A stretch of DNA of 64,000 nucleotides, from IMG/VR virus record IMGVR_UViG_3300025389_000010, positions 32,001 to 96,000 of that record; one strand, 5' to 3'. A program made the translations under genes and the position numbers. Under the pieces are notes generated by a model that was given only the letters and a program-made list of their open reading frames with translations, made no database searches and had not been told where the DNA came from. This stretch comes from a virus (taxonomy: Duplodnaviria; Caudoviricetes). Positions 16,237 to 51,006 of the stretch are shown piece after piece (positions within the stretch are counted from its first letter, which is position 1; the number at the start of each line of letters is the position of its first letter).

Positions 16237-19200
16237 TTACAATAAGCCTAAACCATGATAAATGTCATATGACAAGATTCTATCAATCATTTGTTCATTT
16301 CCAACCCATTGTAAATAACTTGATAAGTTTTTATTTAACGTAGTAAGATCGTTTTGCCAATCTATAATACCGTCAATTTGTTTTTGATCATTACCGGGAA
16401 TGAATTCATAAAATTCATAAAAATCATTCCATGCGCTACCGGTCGATTGGTTTAATTTTAAGAAAATTACAAGTTCTTCTAAAGGATATTGCATTATTTT
16501 TATATTATTTCCAACGTAAGATAATAATCTTGGATCTAATTTTATTAGATAGTTATTCAAGAAGTTTATAGTGTCTATTGTATTTTTTATCTGATCTGGC
16601 AAAATATTTTGTGGTAATCTGCTTGTACTACCTTGCCAATAAGCTAAAGCATATTGAATTGTTCGTGAATTAACACCTGTTATCAAATCGTTTGCAACAG
16701 CATCAACCATATATCCAACATCTCTCTTACACTTTGCGCTAAGAGCACCAGAAGCATCAGGAGAAACACTGTATTGTGTTACCAAATAATCATTGTCATA
16801 AACATACTGTGCGACAGTTTGTCGAATAATGTCTCTATTTAAATCAATTGCATCAGCAAGAAGTCTATCCTCTGTTTTTGGATATCCGTTTGGAATGTAT
16901 GGTTTTAATGCACCTTGATTTTGTAGAGGGAATATAATATCGTCTATTCTATTTAAAACATCTTGGTTTCTATCGGAACCCATTTTTGTACTAGAAAGAA
17001 TACCTGTTAATGTAAACGTTGGCACATTTTTAGGGATGTCTTTTCCGGTAATATAATAACCCAACGCTTGAATTGCAGCAATTGTAGGTGCCACTTCATC
17101 TGACGGTAATGTTGGTACACTGCTGTTATAATTAGGTGCTTTTGTTAAAGTTCCCTTGAAATATAGATTTCCTACTTCAATTGATCTGTGGTTTGTATTA
17201 TTTGCAATGTCCGCAGCTATGGCATCAATAATGTATCCGGTATCTCTGTAACATTTCAGAGAAAGAGCGGTATTTGTTAATACACTTGGAAAGTTATATT
17301 TTACAAAATTTACTATTTGATCTTGTAAATTTGATTTGTATTTTAAAATATTTGCACTTGCATTTTTATATGCATCAGAATTGATGGCACCACCGGGTGT
17401 GGTTCTTGGTACATTGTTTATGCTTAAAATAATTTTATTAAAGTTTTCAAGAATATTTGAAATTTTACTTTTTTGAATTGAACTTAAATTATAAGAATTT
17501 TTTTGTAAAACATTTATTATTGTTTTCTTTAAATAATTGATAGTATCAATAGTTTTTTGTTTTTGATTTGGTATAGCCGTTTCGGGTAATCTACTTGTGC
17601 TTCCTTCCCAATAAGCCAAAGCATATTCGATTGAACGTGCAACAACACCAGTTCTTATATCACTTATCACTGCATCAAGCATTAAACCAACATCTCTGTT
17701 GCATTTTGCGGTTAATACTGGATCAGGATATATTTTTGTCAAATATTGTTTAACTTTTACATAATCAGCAACAGCGTTTTGTATTTCTTCTTTTCTTGTC
17801 AATAATTCTTGTCCAAGTTGGATGTCATTTTTTAAGGGATTACCTTGTGGTAAATAAACTTTTGTTTGACCGTTATTTTCAAGTGTGTATATTATATCTT
17901 TTAATCTATATGTTACATCTTGTGCTCTATTTACCATATCATCTCCGGAGAGAACACCTGTTGTTGTAAAGGGAGTTGGATATTCGGGTATACCTTTACC
18001 TGTTATATAAAAATTTATAGCACTTATTGCAGCTATTGTTGCTGTTATCTGATCTGATGGTAATGATGGAATGCTGCTATCCGGATATGTTAGTTGTGTT
18101 CCTAATGTTCCATTAAAATAAATATAAGATACGTCTATGGATCTATGATTTGCATTGTTAGCAATATCCGCAGCAATAGCATCAAGAATAAAACCAACAT
18201 CTCTATAACATTTTGCAGAAAGTGTTGGGAAAAGAGGATCATCTTGTAAATAACCCGACTGTACAACATAAGCAGACATATAATTTTGAATCGCTGCTCT
18301 GTTTTGTATTAAAAATTGACTTGTTTCTATATCTTGTTGAGTTGGGCTACCAGCAGGAACATAGCTATTAAGTTGTCCGTTATTTTGTAAAGGATAAACA
18401 ACATCGTCTACCCTATTTGATAAATCTGTTTGTCTATTGATTAGATTACCGCTTGATAAGATTCCAGTATATGTAAAAGAAGGAATACCTGTCGGTATAT
18501 TTGTACCATTGATATAATTCTTTAACATGCTAATTGCATCTATTGTGACTAAAATCTGATCTGATGGTAAAGTTGGTACACTACTATCATAGTTTGGAAG
18601 GCCCATCAAGGTACCTTTAAAATAAATGTTTCCTACTTCAATTGATCTGTGGTTTGCATTATTTGCAATGTCAGCAGCTATGGCATCAATAATGTATCCG
18701 GTATCTCTATAGCATTTTGCTGATAAAGTGCTATTACTTAAAGTTGTAGGATATTGATAATATACATAGTCTACAATTTGCTGTTGTAATTGAGATTTAA
18801 ACTGAAGAATTGCATTAGAAGCATTTGCATAAGAATCATCACTAACAATACCAGATGGTGTGGTAACAGGAACATTATTTTGATCTAAGATGATATTAAT
18901 AAAATTTTGTAAACTATTTTTTATTTCATCGTATTGTGTTTGTGAAAAATCTTGAATATTAGTTTGACATAAATTTTCTATATAATTTCTAAGTTCCGCT
19001 ATCGTATCAGTTGTGTTTTGTATTTGATTGGGTATAAGATTTTCTGGTAGTCTGCTTGTGCTTCCTTCCCAATAAGCCAAAGCATATTGAATTGTTCTGG
19101 AAACAACACCAGAAGATAAATCATTTGCAAGAGCATCAATCATTAAACCTATATCTCTTTTGCATTTTAAAAGATTTGCACCGTTTTTATCTAAAGCTGC

Positions 19201-22200
19201 TGGAAAATAATAATCGGCATAATCAACAATTTGTTGTTGTATTTGTGGTTTAAAGTACAATATTTTTTGACTAGCTATTTGATAGGATGAATCTGTAATG
19301 TTACCACTTGGTGATGTTTTTGGTGTGTTTGTGTTGTCTAAAATAATATTTCTAAAATTATCTAAACTTATTGTTATTTTATCAGGTGGAAGTTGAAACA
19401 ATGGACCAGTTTGTATTAATTCATATTTGTTTAATGATTTTGTTTTTAAAACAACTGGTGTACCAGCACTTACTTGATAGTTTATTGTTAATAATTTTCC
19501 TTTATTTAAAACACCTTCATTACTTTGATTTATAAAATTATTTTGGTTCATTGCTGATGAACCCCATAATCTAGATTGGTTAATTGAAACCAAATCCATT
19601 ATTCTCTTTGTATTGCTTGGATAATTTATTCTATAATCATTTGTGTTTTCATCCAATATGTCGGACATGTCATAAACATGGTTTATATTTGCAGTATCTA
19701 TGTCCTTTGTGTTTTTTATAAAATTTGATATTTTTTCATATGGAAAAATACCGAGATCAAAATGTGAAAAAGGATATGTTCCAAAAATAGAAGGTATAAA
19801 TGAATTTAAAAGAACCTCGCTTTCATATAAAGAAGGTATAAAAGAAAAAGATTTAATCTGTGCAGCAAAATCAAAATTTTCATTGATCTTAAAAAGATCT
19901 ATTTTATTATCCAAATATAAAGGAACTGGTGACAGTACATTGTCAACTGTTATATCCAAACCATAATTTGTTTCTATTAATCTATTATAATTTGTTACAA
20001 GTAATGATTGGCTTTGTTGCAATGAAGAAGAATTAGATTGAAACACATCAAGTGTTCTGGAAACACCGCTTAAATTTAAAAAAAGAGTTGAACTGTTATA
20101 GTTGGCACGATAAACATATTTGTTAAGCCATTTGAAACCTGTCCAATCACCATAGGCTTGTGCTGATTTTTGCCATTGATTATATTCTTTTAATGTTCTT
20201 GTATATTCCCCGTTTGTGTAAAAAGTAAAACCTTGTGGGTTTATATAAAATTTTTCTGAAAAATCTACTATTTTTGAATCAAACACATAAATTTGATTTT
20301 CTATTGAATTTATAACATATATGTTTCCTTTTAAATCACAGGCTATACCTTCAATTGCAGTTTCTGATGTGTTTTTGGATGGTGTTGTTAAATAACTATC
20401 AACACCAAGTGATGCATCGGTATAAGAAGATAACGAAAAGGTTACATTTCTTGCATTTTGATTATTAAGATAACCTATTTCATTATATCCAAACGTATAC
20501 CATAAATTTTGATTGATATCCAAAGCAAGATTATTAACACCTTTTATTGGTCCAAAACTACTCAAAAGAATACCATCTGTATTTCTTTTTTCAATGTAGC
20601 CGTCTGTATCCCAAATTGTATTTGATAATGCAATCCAAACATTGTTTTCACTGTCAACAATTATATCTTGTGGACATGATTCTGGATCATATGTTATTGT
20701 GTTTAGTAAATTACCATCTGTATCAAATTTAATTAAAATACCACTTGCATAATTTGAATAACTAACCCATATATTATTATCAATATCTGTTTCAATAAAA
20801 GTAGGTTGTATTAAGTTTTCTGTTATTGTATTTGGATAATCAAAGTTATCTTTATACCAATTTAAATCTATATTCGGAGGATCTTGATAATTAATGAAAA
20901 GATTAGTATCTATAGTGTTTAAATAGTTTCCTTCTGCATCAAATTTTAAAACTGATGTGGTGTCATATAATGTCATCCATATGTTTTTATTACCATCTAA
21001 TGATATCGATGCAGGAGAAGGATATGGTAAAGTTTCATACTGTCTACTTGTTGTTTTTGGTAAACCAGTAACTGAATATATATCTATAGCACATAGGATT
21101 TGACCATTTGTTGCAAACTTATAAAGATAATTTAAATCACCATCACATGCCCATGCATTAAATTCAGGAAAAGGTAATACCGCAATACTGTTTATATCAT
21201 GATGACCAGAAGTTGCATATGTTCCCGCTAAAAAATCTTGATTAATAACAGGAACATCAAAATTATAAATTTGTGCTTTTAATAAATTTCTAGAATCTTC
21301 TAAAAAGGAATATTGTGAATTATATTCAACAATTGACACGCAACCAGCATTTGGATTTGATATCCAAAGTTTAGGTGAATAATCATTTCCAAACAAATTA
21401 GGTGTGCTTAAAGATGTACTTGCTGTTATAGCACACCCTAAGGTTGTTTTCATATAAAAGTCAAAATGGTTTTTATTATATCCGGTTGTTAAATAACCAT
21501 TTTCATCATTATAATATATATTTAAATCATTTAAAAATATCGCACTAACCGCTGTTGTTTTTATAAAATGTGTTCCACTTAATAATACAATATCTGTATT
21601 AATAGCTATTGTATTATCACTTTCAGAAAAAGGATGTGTTTTACAAAAATTTGAGTGTGTGTTTATTGGTGTTATCTGGTTACCTGATGGTATATAATAA
21701 TCATATTTGCTATTCCAGTTTAATGTATATACAATTGGTTGTGTAGCAGCAATCCATCTTGGGTTTATAAAATCACGAATTCCATTTTCTGAAATTTTAA
21801 TATACTCCGGTGGTCTATAATGAAAAATATGAGGTTGTATAGCAACTGCAAAACTATTGCTTTCCTTCGATGCTCCTATATAATTTAAATTAGGATCATA
21901 ATAGTTTATAGCACTTGTTTGTAATGTTGCAACAATACAAGTATAAGGACCATTGTCCATAGCTAAATCAAAATTATACCAATCATCGACGAAATAAAAC
22001 TCAGCGTACCCACTGACACCTATAAAATTTCCAGTTACTGTGCTTACTAAGCCATTTTTATCCAAATATAAAGGAGTATCAATTGTTTTAATTGCACTTA
22101 TTTTGTTTCCACTTAAATCTAAAAATCTGAATTCTGATCTTAAAAATGACCATTTATTTAAAATATCCTGTGGATGATAAGATCTTGAATATTTTGAATC

Positions 22201-22347
22201 TAAAAAAACATAATGGTCATCATCATTTGATGATGATATTACAATACGAAATGGATATCTATTAATATGACCGGCTAAAGTAGGAGGCGGTGCATAATCA
22301 AAGTATATAGATTCATTTAAAATTGATGGTATTGAATATGATTGCAT
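16237..22347 (-). CDS. 2036-aa baseplate-operon protein: N-terminal beta-propeller plus six phycobiliprotein-like (C-x-R-D) repeats
   Basis: Propeller blades (IWMTLYD, IWVSYSN, VWIALSN, LWYTFGY, IYVINS); six helical repeats KC(K/Y/N)RD(I/V/T)G(Y/L/F)xxDA; starts 2 nt after the gp6 stop. Confidence 0.75.
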   Translation of the reverse strand: MQSYSIPSILNESIYFDYAPPPTLAGHINRYPFRIVISSSNDDDHYVFLDSKYSRSYHPQDILNKWSFLRSEFRFLDLSGNKISAIKTIDTPLYLDKNGLVSTVTGNFIGVSGYAEFYFVDDWYNFDLAMDNGPYTCIVATLQTSAINYYDPNLNYIGASKESNSFAVAIQPHIFHYRPPEYIKISENGIRDFINPRWIAATQPIVYTLNWNSKYDYYIPSGNQITPINTHSNFCKTHPFSESDNTIAINTDIVLLSGTHFIKTTAVSAIFLNDLNIYYNDENGYLTTGYNKNHFDFYMKTTLGCAITASTSLSTPNLFGNDYSPKLWISNPNAGCVSIVEYNSQYSFLEDSRNLLKAQIYNFDVPVINQDFLAGTYATSGHHDINSIAVLPFPEFNAWACDGDLNYLYKFATNGQILCAIDIYSVTGLPKTTSRQYETLPYPSPASISLDGNKNIWMTLYDTTSVLKFDAEGNYLNTIDTNLFINYQDPPNIDLNWYKDNFDYPNTITENLIQPTFIETDIDNNIWVSYSNYASGILIKFDTDGNLLNTITYDPESCPQDIIVDSENNVWIALSNTIWDTDGYIEKRNTDGILLSSFGPIKGVNNLALDINQNLWYTFGYNEIGYLNNQNARNVTFSLSSYTDASLGVDSYLTTPSKNTSETAIEGIACDLKGNIYVINSIENQIYVFDSKIVDFSEKFYINPQGFTFYTNGEYTRTLKEYNQWQKSAQAYGDWTGFKWLNKYVYRANYNSSTLFLNLSGVSRTLDVFQSNSSSLQQSQSLLVTNYNRLIETNYGLDITVDNVLSPVPLYLDNKIDLFKINENFDFAAQIKSFSFIPSLYESEVLLNSFIPSIFGTYPFSHFDLGIFPYEKISNFIKNTKDIDTANINHVYDMSDILDENTNDYRINYPSNTKRIMDLVSINQSRLWGSSAMNQNNFINQSNEGVLNKGKLLTINYQVSAGTPVVLKTKSLNKYELIQTGPLFQLPPDKITISLDNFRNIILDNTNTPKTSPSGNITDSSYQIASQKILYFKPQIQQQIVDYADYYFPAALDKNGANLLKCKRDIGLMIDALANDLSSGVVSRTIQYALAYWEGSTSRLPENLIPNQIQNTTDTIAELRNYIENLCQTNIQDFSQTQYDEIKNSLQNFINIILDQNNVPVTTPSGIVSDDSYANASNAILQFKSQLQQQIVDYVYYQYPTTLSNSTLSAKCYRDTGYIIDAIAADIANNANHRSIEVGNIYFKGTLMGLPNYDSSVPTLPSDQILVTIDAISMLKNYINGTNIPTGIPSFTYTGILSSGNLINRQTDLSNRVDDVVYPLQNNGQLNSYVPAGSPTQQDIETSQFLIQNRAAIQNYMSAYVVQSGYLQDDPLFPTLSAKCYRDVGFILDAIAADIANNANHRSIDVSYIYFNGTLGTQLTYPDSSIPSLPSDQITATIAAISAINFYITGKGIPEYPTPFTTTGVLSGDDMVNRAQDVTYRLKDIIYTLENNGQTKVYLPQGNPLKNDIQLGQELLTRKEEIQNAVADYVKVKQYLTKIYPDPVLTAKCNRDVGLMLDAVISDIRTGVVARSIEYALAYWEGSTSRLPETAIPNQKQKTIDTINYLKKTIINVLQKNSYNLSSIQKSKISNILENFNKIILSINNVPRTTPGGAINSDAYKNASANILKYKSNLQDQIVNFVKYNFPSVLTNTALSLKCYRDTGYIIDAIAADIANNTNHRSIEVGNLYFKGTLTKAPNYNSSVPTLPSDEVAPTIAAIQALGYYITGKDIPKNVPTFTLTGILSSTKMGSDRNQDVLNRIDDIIFPLQNQGALKPYIPNGYPKTEDRLLADAIDLNRDIIRQTVAQYVYDNDYLVTQYSVSPDASGALSAKCKRDVGYMVDAVANDLITGVNSRTIQYALAYWQGSTSRLPQNILPDQIKNTIDTINFLNNYLIKLDPRLLSYVGNNIKIMQYPLEELVIFLKLNQSTGSAWNDFYEFYEFIPGNDQKQIDGIIDWQNDLTTLNKNLSSYLQWVGNEQMIDRILSYDIYHGLGLL
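16540..19320 (-). repeat. Six tandem ~150-170-aa helical repeats in two subtypes (order A-B-B-A-B-A)
   Basis: Cys codons at about 19162, 18712, 18208, 17701, 17251 and 16729; near-identical DNA between ~17170-17255 and ~18630-18715. Confidence 0.9.
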
Positions 22348-45573: not shown

Positions 45574-46209
45574 ATGGCAATTAAATCAAAGAAAAAAAGT
45601 TTAAAACCAAAAAAATTGGTTAAAAAGACCCCAAAAAACATTGTTCCTTCTTCTCCAAAGAAAGTTCAAAATGAAGTTTCTAGAATTCTTACACAAAATA
45701 AAGAAAGAATGAATCTCAAAGAAGGTCATATTCCATTTGCTTCAAGATTTTTAGCCTCTTTGTTAAAAGAACAAGAAGAAACTCTTCCAACACCACCTGT
45801 TGGTGATGATGAAATCAAAACTCCGGATAAATTTACACCAGAAGGTGATAAAGAGGCTTTTGATAAGTCATTAGAGCCTGAAACAGATAAAGATGAATTT
45901 GAGACACAAGGTGTTTCGCCTGATGTTACTTCACAGACAATAAACAGCATCAGAGAATGGTCCGTAAAACTTGATCAGTTTGCCGAATTCTTAAATGATC
46001 CTTCATCAAAGTCACTTCACAAAATTCTTGCTGATGGTGACAGAGCAGGTAGTTTGCTTCGTGGTGTAACTAGAAAAGCATCTGATTCTATCACTCGTAT
46101 TGCCGGTGAAGTTGAGAAACTTAAAGAAATTCTCAATACCTATATTATCACTGCTCCTAAAAAGCTTCGTGATACGGAACAGCAGACTGCTGGTTGGACA
46201 CAATACTAA
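45574..46209 (+). CDS. Hypothetical late protein, possible internal head protein
   Basis: Canonical TATAAATA at 45554-45561; basic N-terminus, then LLKEQEE and an acidic region. Confidence 0.55.
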   Translation: MAIKSKKKSLKPKKLVKKTPKNIVPSSPKKVQNEVSRILTQNKERMNLKEGHIPFASRFLASLLKEQEETLPTPPVGDDEIKTPDKFTPEGDKEAFDKSLEPETDKDEFETQGVSPDVTSQTINSIREWSVKLDQFAEFLNDPSSKSLHKILADGDRAGSLLRGVTRKASDSITRIAGEVEKLKEILNTYIITAPKKLRDTEQQTAGWTQY

Positions 46210-49141: not shown

Positions 49142-49169
49142 TTGACATATCGTTCCAATATCATATATT
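49142..49169 (+). promoter_or_regulatory. Sigma70-like promoter for heme oxygenase (TTGACA-N16-TATATT-N6-ATG)
   Basis: Read directly; spacing implies a leaderless mRNA. Confidence 0.65.
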
Positions 49170-49175
49170 AATTAT

Positions 49176-49721
49176 ATGAACTTTCAAGAAAAACTTAAAA
49201 ACGAAACTAAAATCAATCACGATGCAGCCGAGCAACATCCTTTTAATGAGCAATTGATGAAAGGTGAACTTCCTGATCAAAAATATTACCTTTATTTAAA
49301 AAATATTGTTCCCGTTTATGATTATATTGAAAAGCGTTTGAGTTTTAATGGTGAACTCATTAGATCCACTTTGATTTATAATGATATTTCCGCTTATGCA
49401 AAAGATGGTTGTACAAATGGCCCTTTAAATTACTTTGTTTATGATTGGATGAATGTTCTTGCTCAAAAGAGCAATGTTCAGCTTCTTTCTGAAGTATATG
49501 TCGAGTGGCTTAAGGATGTATATGGTGGACAAATCATTTCAAAGTTTGTTAAATTCAACAGTCATCTTAAATTCAGCAACCAAAAGGAAACAATCGGTAA
49601 CGTAAGAGGATTGTTGGCATCTATAACACCTGAACTTGAAAAAGATTTTATTTTTGAAGTCAACAGGACTTATATTAATCACTATAATTTGATGGACAGC
49701 ATAATGTACGGATCAAAATGA
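49176..49721 (+). CDS. ho1: Heme oxygenase
   Basis: LKNETKINHDAAEQHPF (proximal His), YYLYLKN, distal DxxGGQII motif. Confidence 0.85.
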   Translation: MNFQEKLKNETKINHDAAEQHPFNEQLMKGELPDQKYYLYLKNIVPVYDYIEKRLSFNGELIRSTLIYNDISAYAKDGCTNGPLNYFVYDWMNVLAQKSNVQLLSEVYVEWLKDVYGGQIISKFVKFNSHLKFSNQKETIGNVRGLLASITPELEKDFIFEVNRTYINHYNLMDSIMYGSK

Positions 49722-50398
49722 TTAAAGAACTTCATGATGAGTATAAAAAACTCGCAGACCAATCGTTCCAAAGATTTGAACTCCATTTTCAACCAGATGG
49801 TTCAGACATCATATGGGAAAACAACATATATCAATCTCCTAGCATTAGGTATGGTCATTTGGAACATTTCAGATCCCCAAATGGTAAGGTTGAAGTCATG
49901 CATTGTGTCTTCTTTCCATCTTTTTTTAAACCACTTCCTATTTTTGGATTTGATATCATCGCATTAAACGAAACTATTACGGGTATTTTCTGTGATTTTA
50001 CTCGTGCTCCTTTTGAAATAGAAGCATTGGCTCGTTCTCTAAAAGATTTAAAGCATGAATATAAAGATCATTTAAGGACACTTCCTGAATGGGCTAATTT
50101 TTTTTCTGAAAATTTTGTATGTATTCGTCCAGATGGTCTTGATCATAAGAAATTGATTGAAGATTTTTCTGGTATATTCAGGTGTTTTATCGGGTATAGT
50201 AACTGGCAGGACTATACTGGCAAGTATAACAGCATGGAAGATGTAAAAACATCCATTAATTTTCAAAATGGTTATTCTTTAAATCAAAGAAAAAATGAAA
50301 AGACATCAAAAGCTCTTGCTGCTTATATTGGAGAAGAAAAGGCCAAAGAATTTATAGAAGAAATCTTATTCCCTGTCTATAGAGAGAACACTTTTTAA
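49718..50398 (+). CDS. pcyA: Ferredoxin-dependent bilin reductase, PcyA/PcyX-like
   Basis: GHLE (His74/Glu76 equivalent), VMHCVFFP (His88), PIFGFDII (Asp105), RTLPEWANFFS, QRKNEKTSKAL...ILFP; ATGA overlap with ho1. Confidence 0.85.
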   Translation: MIKELHDEYKKLADQSFQRFELHFQPDGSDIIWENNIYQSPSIRYGHLEHFRSPNGKVEVMHCVFFPSFFKPLPIFGFDIIALNETITGIFCDFTRAPFEIEALARSLKDLKHEYKDHLRTLPEWANFFSENFVCIRPDGLDHKKLIEDFSGIFRCFIGYSNWQDYTGKYNSMEDVKTSINFQNGYSLNQRKNEKTSKALAAYIGEEKAKEFIEEILFPVYRENTF

Positions 50399-51006
50399 GA
50401 ACATGACTCTACTAACTTTGCTTCTGCTTCTCTTCGCACAATAAGACCATCAAGGTTTTTACCTTGCCATATTCTTTTCATCTTTCTTAGCTCTTTAGCT
50501 ATACCTTTATAGTCTTTTTTAGGTACTAGATCACGAATATTACGCATTTCCAAACGACTATCACCTATCATTGATGTTCCCCTGTTAAAAACAAGAGAGA
50601 CTATTGCGCCATAGGCATCATCGCAAAGCTCTGACAGCCCCGGAAAAGCTTTTTCTGCTAGTTTTGTAAACTTGGGCCATGTGTACGTATCAAATATTTC
50701 CACGGCTTTATTCCAAGGGATTTCAATACCGTCATTTTTATGTTGATTAGTATATTCTTTGCCAGCTTGACCGGTTTTACCTGATGCATTTTGTACAACT
50801 TTAAGTTTATCAGGAGGTAAAAAGTTAAAAATTTCAGATAATTCATTAAATGTATAGTATCCACAGTCTATACCTATAGCTAATGTCATGCCACTTGCAC
50901 CACCGGGCCATTCTGGTTTAGTCAAATACTTTTCATAGTATTCTTTTCCACCACCTACTTCATATTCAAGAATTAATGCTAATGCTTTTGGTGATGGGGT
51001 TTTCAT
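50395..51006 (-). CDS. Endolysin, lysozyme-fold (pesticin-like/GH24-related muramidase)
   Basis: LILEYEVGG...WPGGASGMTLAIGIDCG, AIVSLVFNRG, RIWQGKNLDGLIVRREAEAKL. Confidence 0.85.
   Translation of the reverse strand: MKTPSPKALALILEYEVGGGKEYYEKYLTKPEWPGGASGMTLAIGIDCGYYTFNELSEIFNFLPPDKLKVVQNASGKTGQAGKEYTNQHKNDGIEIPWNKAVEIFDTYTWPKFTKLAEKAFPGLSELCDDAYGAIVSLVFNRGTSMIGDSRLEMRNIRDLVPKKDYKGIAKELRKMKRIWQGKNLDGLIVRREAEAKLVESCS

Follow-up and report, generated by a model that had tools for sequence, protein, structure and literature searches.

This report concerns a heme oxygenase-bilin reductase gene pair in an uncultured T4-like phage, and a candidate acceptor for its product in the same genome. The window analysed is a stretch of 64,000 nt with a GC content of 32%. 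It comprises bases 32001-96000 of the 225,756-bp IMG/VR virus record IMGVR_UViG_3300025389_000010, which CheckV rates as complete. Two plus-strand open reading frames, hemO and a gene for a PcyA-type ferredoxin-dependent bilin reductase (FDBR), are coupled by an ATGA overlap and lie downstream of a putative promoter (Table 1). The reductase stop codon TAA (50396-50398) is part of a palindrome, TTAA, that also holds the stop codon of the convergent lysozyme gene, giving a 4-nt tail-to-tail overlap. The genes that flank the cassette between 46206 and 56542 all have minus-strand orientation, and one further plus-strand gene lies near it (45574-46209). The preliminary description of this locus had claimed just such an arrangement: two coupled genes, with a sigma70-like promoter of their own, set as an island in a minus-strand region and ending in a 4-nt overlap with the endolysin. 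Each of these features is present. Its identification of a heme oxygenase and a bilin reductase also stands, as both open reading frames score above the Pfam curated cut-offs.

Table 1. Features of the bilin cassette, its 3' neighbour and the candidate acceptor (positions are those of the window)
Feature	Position	Strand	Remarks
Six tandem phycobiliprotein-like domains, candidate bilin acceptor	16423..19305	-	K-C-x-R-D-x-G in each
Putative sigma-70-type promoter	49142..49169	+	TTGACA (49142-49147), 16-nt spacer, TATATT (49164-49169)
hemO, short heme oxygenase, 181 aa	49176..49721	+	Pfam PF01126 match
PcyA-type ferredoxin-dependent bilin reductase, 226 aa	49718..50398	+	Pfam PF05996 match
Endolysin, lysozyme family (Pfam Phage_lysozyme)	50395..51006	-	convergent with the cassette; outside the bilin pathway
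Terminator-like hairpin	50451..50466	+	53 nt past the reductase stop, within the antisense of the lysozyme gene

The promoter element matches the consensus at 11 of 12 hexamer positions and is the best promoter-like site within 48.5-51.6 kb. Promoter-like sites are common in AT-rich DNA of this kind (21 found, 16 expected), making the match weak evidence when taken alone. The -35 and -10 hexamers also occur at the same position 5' of hemO in three diverged relatives (L025, L026 and L201), and the spacers differ. Retention of the hexamers across a diverged spacer suggests that the element is probably a real promoter of the early type. Its -10 hexamer ends 6 nt before the hemO ATG. With 6-10 nt left before the start codon, the mRNA would be nearly leaderless.

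The layout of short hemO, reductase and 4-nt endolysin overlap is maintained in relatives whose reductases are 59-95% identical (for example L025 and L026). Relatives with reductase identities of 59-69% retain the promoter as well as the cassette and its position. Other neighbours surround the cassette in the more remote reductase-family members P0040 and G001. In one related lake phage (L365:3666-4139), a Peptidase_M15_4 endolysin replaces the lysozyme and the 4-nt overlap with the reductase stop persists; here, the endolysin has been swapped and the junction kept. Early transcription of the cassette may continue into the 3' end of the lysis gene on its antisense strand.

The HemO protein matches the Pfam family Heme_oxygenase with an E-value of 8e-10 (39 bits; cut-off 23). 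The match spans profile positions 2-141 of 204. A short HemO is usual among phages, with oxygenase open frames of 173-197 aa in other phage cassettes, and the vHemO of CB_2, a freshwater jumbo phage from Crystal Bog, is active (PMC11480375). In the protein studied here, His15 aligns with the heme-ligand histidine of human HO-2. Five phage HemO sequences, one of them that of Mosig, all share this residue and Asp114, Gly117, Gly118 and Gln119. The last four are presumably the distal-helix residues familiar from HO-1. A heme oxygenase accompanies the reductase in every phage checked, and the whole genome of this phage encodes one of each.

The reductase matches the Pfam family Fe_bilin_red with an E-value of 4e-24 (86 bits; cut-off 31). 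Its His47, Glu49, His62 and Asp79 align with Synechocystis PcyA His74, Glu76, His88 and Asp105, so that all four catalytic equivalents listed in the preliminary description are in place. At the site of PcyA Asp220 there is an acidic equivalent, Glu194; Bradyrhizobium PcyA likewise has a glutamate there, Glu211 (PMC13446030, table 2). If the catalytic triad is defined as Glu76, His88 and Asp105 (PMC13446030), the enzyme has the full PcyA residue set: the triad; the His74 equivalent; and an acidic side chain at the Asp220 site. Sequence searches of the PDB find PcyA at an E-value of 1e-18, as compared to 4e-13 for PcyX. An AlphaFold2 model built from 41 sequences (mean predicted local distance difference test score, pLDDT, 94) has the alpha/beta/alpha FDBR fold, matching 37 FDBR chains at E <1e-5. 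The 18 best PDB matches of this model are all PcyA (E 7e-15 to 2e-12; template modelling score, TM, 0.72-0.80), and PcyX ranks 25th.

Within the family, the histidine and aspartate of the catalytic set are kept in all close homologs that cover their sites. The glutamate at the Glu76 site is kept in 39 of the 45 that cover it, and glutamine replaces it in six family members: P0011, P0012, P0014, P0020, P0028 (the L001 protein) and the enzyme of G001. Like P0011, P0012, P0014, P0020 and P0028, the reductase L192:1381-2025 has glutamine at the Glu76 equivalent and keeps the His88 and Asp105 equivalents. As Glu76 is needed for the 18-vinyl group to be reduced, the glutamine variants may stop at a phytochromobilin-like product. 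Tu et al. 2007 reportedly support the loss of 18-vinyl reduction in such variants; a search of the accessible literature found no paper on the product of PcyA E76Q. Four other homologs of 380-410 aa (P0051, P0052, P0055 and P0078) have an extra C-terminal half of ~180 aa, and may be fusions with another protein such as heme oxygenase.

The preliminary description described the cassette as ho1-pcyA-like and looked to reductase phylogeny to place the enzyme. Trees were built from close homologs, the 150 top-ranking of 1.84 billion cluster representatives, named cyanobacterial PcyA loci, cyanophage-like loci and the Mosig PcyX. Two trees agree, one of 143 rows computed with posterior mean site frequencies (PMSF) and one of 54 rows computed under LG+G4; the latter was used for the approximately unbiased (AU) test. 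The query family forms a clade (support 100/98) inside a larger clade (98/88) that contains uncultured sequences only. Cyanobacterial and cyanophage PcyA form one clade (100/100) that excludes the query, and PcyX with a few basal glutamate-bearing forms makes up another (100/100), also without the query. The PcyX clade is sister to a clade in which the sequences that best match a Bradyrhizobium PcyA fragment are found, and CB_2-like sequences are a separate group. The AU test rejects a tree in which the query family and PcyX are constrained to a joint clade (p-AU 0.0018); it does not reject the query as sister to the cyanobacterial PcyA clade (p-AU 0.125). Phylogeny thus assigns the enzyme to a clade of its own, in neither the PcyX clade nor the cyanobacterial/cyanophage PcyA clade.

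Signature peptides of the query family are not found in the sequence set of PMC11480375. Among GTDB representative genomes, the sole close match is a 3.4-kb contig binned in a lake Proteobacteria metagenome-assembled genome (MAG), and this contig is probably phage DNA. The reductase represents a well-supported, apparently unpublished lineage with PcyA-type residues.

The residue at the Glu76 site distinguishes the enzymes by product. PcyA requires Glu76 for 18-vinyl reduction, and PcyX has an aspartate there (PMC10151467, PMC13446030). The motif at this site reads G-H-L-E in the query and A-H-V-E in CB_2 vPcyA, an enzyme shown to make phycocyanobilin (PCB; PMC11480375). In the Mosig reductase, a full-length match (E 2e-138) to the crystallised PcyX (PcyX_EBK42635, PDB 5OWG), it reads A-H-V-D, as it does in 5OWG itself, confirming the aspartate. 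The His88 and Asp105 equivalents are kept in PcyX as they are here; the difference lies in the aspartate and in the product, phycoerythrobilin (PEB). The preliminary description had left the choice between PCB and PEB open. Of the two, PCB is favoured by the glutamate at the site, by the position outside the PcyX clade and by the best fold matches, which are to PcyA, and PEB is disfavoured. It is likely that the two genes encode a working HemO-reductase pair, with a predicted product of PCB type instead of PEB.

It is distinctly improbable that the reductase is a PcyX-type enzyme that makes PEB via 15,16-dihydrobiliverdin, as the marine pelagiphage enzymes do. PcyX is a detectable relative in the PDB sequence search, and Mosig, which is also not a cyanophage, has the same layout with hemO directly upstream. 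However, the query has Glu49 in place of the PcyX-specific Asp55, it lies outside the PcyX clade, with the joint clade rejected, and its fold-match E-values are better for PcyA by seven orders of magnitude. The Mosig PcyX is 25% identical to the query.

Several observations weigh against a simple PcyA assignment. Against NF002760, the NCBIfam equivalog for PcyA, the score of the reductase is 111 bits, below the cut-off of 206, and cyanophage-like PcyA loci from IMG/VR (L002, L019 and L020) score above it at 210-223 bits. Over the structural alignment, identity to solved PcyA is just 24-26%. Together, the low identity and the sub-cut-off score mean that regiospecificity could differ. Moreover, the glutamine found at the glutamate site in some members indicates that the chemistry drifts within the reductase clade, and the predicted PCB product is itself read from residues.

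The phage that carries the cassette is T4-like, with genes for a portal, a gp23-type capsid protein, baseplate wedge, clamp loader, gp55-type late sigma factor, SbcD-like nuclease and primase. Searches of the complete record found none of psbA/psbD, hli, cpeT or cpeS, nor a plant-type (petF-type) ferredoxin, a GAF domain or phytochrome gene, or a 5-aminolevulinate (ALA) synthase (alaS, TIGR01821); the positive controls of these searches all gave signals. A search for pmoC was also negative but had no positive control and carries no weight. With these genes absent, the phage is not a standard cyanophage. The preliminary description had noted the lack of cyanophage photosynthesis genes in the window, a statement that now extends to the whole 226-kb record. 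It had also named psbA or cpeT elsewhere in the genome as what would make this an ordinary auxiliary pair, and neither is found anywhere in the record. Its central claim, an ho1-pcyA-like cassette in a phage without photosynthesis genes, is supported by the Pfam matches and by these controlled negatives.

The genome content and the reductase tree bear on the most conventional explanation: an ordinary cyanophage auxiliary pair that tops up the phycobilisome pigment of a cyanobacterial host. Cyanomyoviruses do carry pcyA and ho1, and by capsid and portal the cultured phages closest to this one are cyanophages (Kyanoviridae). Yet the identities are low (capsid 32-35%, portal 30%), psbA/psbD, hli, cpeT, cpeS and ferredoxin are all missing from the complete genome, and the reductase lies outside the cyanobacterial/cyanophage clade and below the PcyA equivalog cut-off. 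This explanation is therefore highly improbable.

Uncultured viruses of this phage lineage are common: the capsid patterns match at least 600 IMG/VR stretches, and the capsid protein of this phage is 64-80% identical to those of the 80 loci retained. The cassette has no blastn match in 50,697 GenBank phage records, where matches occur at the protein level only (25-30% identity). Related cassettes are found in records named after lakes: a Lake Lanier MAG contig (L031) and the GROS21 and KRAE22 scaffolds (L026, L365), where GROS21 denotes Grosse Fuchskuhle (PMC11480375). Habitat is taken solely from the names of these relatives' records.

A candidate acceptor for the bilin lies ~27 kb from the cassette. 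Residues ~1015-1975 of a 2036-aa baseplate-region protein (gene 16237-22347) form an array of six phycobiliprotein-like repeats, and the residues of the cysteine motif are invariant in 6/6 repeats of the repeat alignment. When a profile of the repeats is compared to the PDB, the 12 best matches are to C-phycocyanin alpha around its chromophore-bearing Cys84, with weak E-values of 0.1-0.3. An AlphaFold2 model of one repeat has six helices (pLDDT 71). Of its 46 best fold matches (TM 0.50-0.67), 45 are phycobiliproteins and one is a bacterial fluorescent protein. No cultured phage was matched at E 1e-3 in a tblastn search with one domain. As neither this search nor Pfam gave a match, the domain call rests on the motif, the weak profile match and the fold. 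The modelled likeness of the repeats to phycobiliproteins appears consistent but statistically weak.

In the orthologous baseplate protein of phage G001 (L362, G001:C1:124500-129000), two domains follow ~residue 650, as compared to six after ~residue 1000 here. Being inserted at different places in orthologous proteins, the array behaves as a mobile module.

The co-occurrence of cassette and array was followed in a reductase-led sample of 74 IMG/VR loci with non-cyanobacterial-type reductases. The repeat-profile search covered 30 long records from this sample, together with G000 (this phage), G001, G007 and G011. Five cassette-bearing lineages, each with a reductase of a different clade, have arrays with the cysteine motif: this phage, with six motifs; G001/G011, with two, at the different insertion place; G007/G030-G032, with five in a 2522-aa protein; G040/G042, with 22 in a protein of >4000 aa; and G052, with six. 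In G007, a CB_2-like jumbo phage, the hemO-reductase pair adjoins a gene for a full-length RpoD-type sigma-70 factor (L193:26-1435, minus strand).

A matched control was provided by 13 records of the same phage lineage, picked by capsid similarity. These have no reductase, and no array save for one weak match. Two complete relatives, G058 and G059, whose capsid proteins are 75-77% identical to that of this phage, are without heme oxygenase, reductase and array alike; their baseplate orthologs, of 1347 and 1413 aa, are without the Cys-x-Arg-Asp motif. When records at least 50% complete are compared, 10 of 15 selected by reductase and 0 of 7 selected by capsid have the domain family (hypergeometric p ~0.005). 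Because the records are not all independent, more weight is placed on the count of five lineages than on this p value. From these comparisons, cassette and array appear to have been acquired or lost jointly in this lineage and to recur together in others.

At least 439 IMG/VR stretches encode the domain. Co-occurrence shows an asymmetry, in which cassette-bearing phages usually have the domain and domain-bearing phages are often without the cassette. Such a pattern is expected where the cassette serves the array, not where the array serves the cassette. The K-C-x-R-D-x-G domains of G010 lie in a giant protein (L368, G010:C1:46500-54500). A cyanophage-like contig with a standard PcyA, G025 (L366, G025:C1:21000-26000), has one motif in a 7077-aa open frame.

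A number of observations weigh against the array as the acceptor. The matches of the repeats by profile and fold are weak (Foldseek E 0.04-0.2 for the fold), and a Pfam search of the repeats gave no match to the phycobiliprotein family PF00502. The cassette-bearing phages G044, G048 and G049 have one homologous domain without the cysteine, and the repeat-profile search found no array in two complete cassette-bearing genomes, those of G034 (453 kb) and Mosig. Among array-selected records at least 50% complete, just 1 of 7 has a reductase. G003 (331 kb, 93% complete) has nine motifs and is without heme oxygenase, reductase and psbA. G010, which is complete, has five motifs and psbA and is without heme oxygenase or reductase; its psbA marks it as a cyanophage with a bilin-making host. 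The asymmetry would also be compatible with a role for the array that does not involve bilin.

In the cysteine-less domain of G044, G049 and G048 (L359, L360 and L361), which belong to another reductase clade, the sequence at K-C-x-R-D reads S-T-I-K-D: the cysteine and the arginine are lost and the aspartate is kept.

The pathway would likely involve: early transcription of the pair by host RNA polymerase, as a single, nearly leaderless and translationally coupled message, in keeping with the conserved sigma-70-type promoter; opening of host heme to biliverdin IX-alpha by HemO, whose family residues are intact, with release of iron and CO; four-electron reduction of biliverdin to PCB, instead of PEB, by the reductase; and, as the leading candidate for the use of the pigment, attachment of PCB to the cysteines of the six domains in the phage's own baseplate protein. 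The electrons for the reduction would be drawn from host ferredoxin, as the phage encodes none. The step from biliverdin to PCB is proposed on the basis of the complete PcyA residue set, the PcyA-like model and the biochemistry of CB_2 vPcyA. As the phage has no lyase gene, attachment would be autocatalytic. ApcE is a precedent for bilin attachment without a lyase. The cassette would then be a pigment supply for the virion, with lyase-free loading of PCB onto the baseplate array giving a pigmented, possibly light-responsive particle. We tentatively assign this reading a probability of roughly 0.35.

The phages that have a cassette and no cysteine-bearing array bring a different purpose into view: iron release or heme disposal, with the reductase merely clearing biliverdin for oxygenase turnover and the bilin having no dedicated target. 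The constant pairing of heme oxygenase and reductase would fit, as would the complete cassette-bearing genomes of G034, Mosig, G048 and G049, and iron supply is discussed for such cassettes in PMC11480375. The strong conservation of product-defining residues across the clade speaks against it, as these would be needless for mere biliverdin clearance, as does the joint presence or absence of cassette and array within the same phage lineage. On balance, this purpose is somewhat unlikely.

The target of the PCB might instead be a host protein, namely a phytochrome, a globin of the BBAG type or another regulator, through which the infected cell would be reprogrammed. CB_2 vHemO and vPcyA are able to supply a phytochrome with bilin in E. 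coli; the authors of that work raise the idea (PMC11480375). Here, this target is unlikely: no GAF domain or phytochrome gene is encoded by the phage, and the coupled presence of a virion array would be left unexplained.

The proposal of a virion pigment supply can be placed among systems already described. This type of cassette is already known, from PcyX in pelagiphages since 2016 and from CB_2 vPcyA in 2024. CB_2 is close in kind: it pairs hemO with a Glu76-bearing reductase of PcyA type, has a non-photosynthetic host, and is of freshwater origin, as are the lake records that hold relatives of the present cassette. Its enzymes have been shown to make biliverdin and PCB (PMC11480375). It differs in that its reductase fragment is nearest P0081/P0068, in another clade than the query family, and in that it belongs to a jumbo lineage, unlike this 226-kb T4-like phage, which also has no alaS. 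The viral cassette of three genes, hemO-pcyA/X-alaS, differs by its alaS, which is absent here. Mosig EXVC030M, a marine pelagimyophage (PhiHemO/PcyX), shares the overlapping hemO-reductase pair in a T4-like non-cyanophage but has no phycobiliprotein-like array, and its reductase is in a separate clade. The cyanobacterial and cyanophage PcyA enzymes (EC 1.3.7.5; PDB 2D1E, 2G18) share the fold and the catalytic residues and are the best structural matches, with identities of 24-35%; at ~245 aa, they are longer than the 226-aa enzyme, whose N-terminus is shorter.

The pre-PcyA clusters of heterotrophic bacteria likewise combine, outside photosynthesis, a heme oxygenase, an FDBR and phycobiliprotein-like globins, the BBAGs, which bind bilin without a lyase (PMC10151467). 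The phage array would need lyase-free attachment of the same kind. In contrast to the phage enzyme, pre-PcyAs are missing the full PcyA triad, and the BBAG is encoded by a small neighbouring gene where the phage has tandem modules inside a virion protein.

The locus adds to this group of systems a new reductase lineage with PcyA-type residues and, in the same genome, a testable candidate for the acceptor. Also new is the comparative pairing of the cassette with a phycobiliprotein-like array, which recurs in four other phage lineages with reductases of different clades. PMC11480375 poses, in its discussion, the purpose of hemO-reductase cassettes outside cyanophages as an open question. If the cassette does supply a virion pigment, such cassettes, in phages whose hosts are non-photosynthetic, would be accessory to arrays of this kind, and a phage whose host produces bilins, such as the psbA-bearing G010, could have the array and no cassette. 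The published question as to why bilins are made by phages of heterotrophs would then have an answer.

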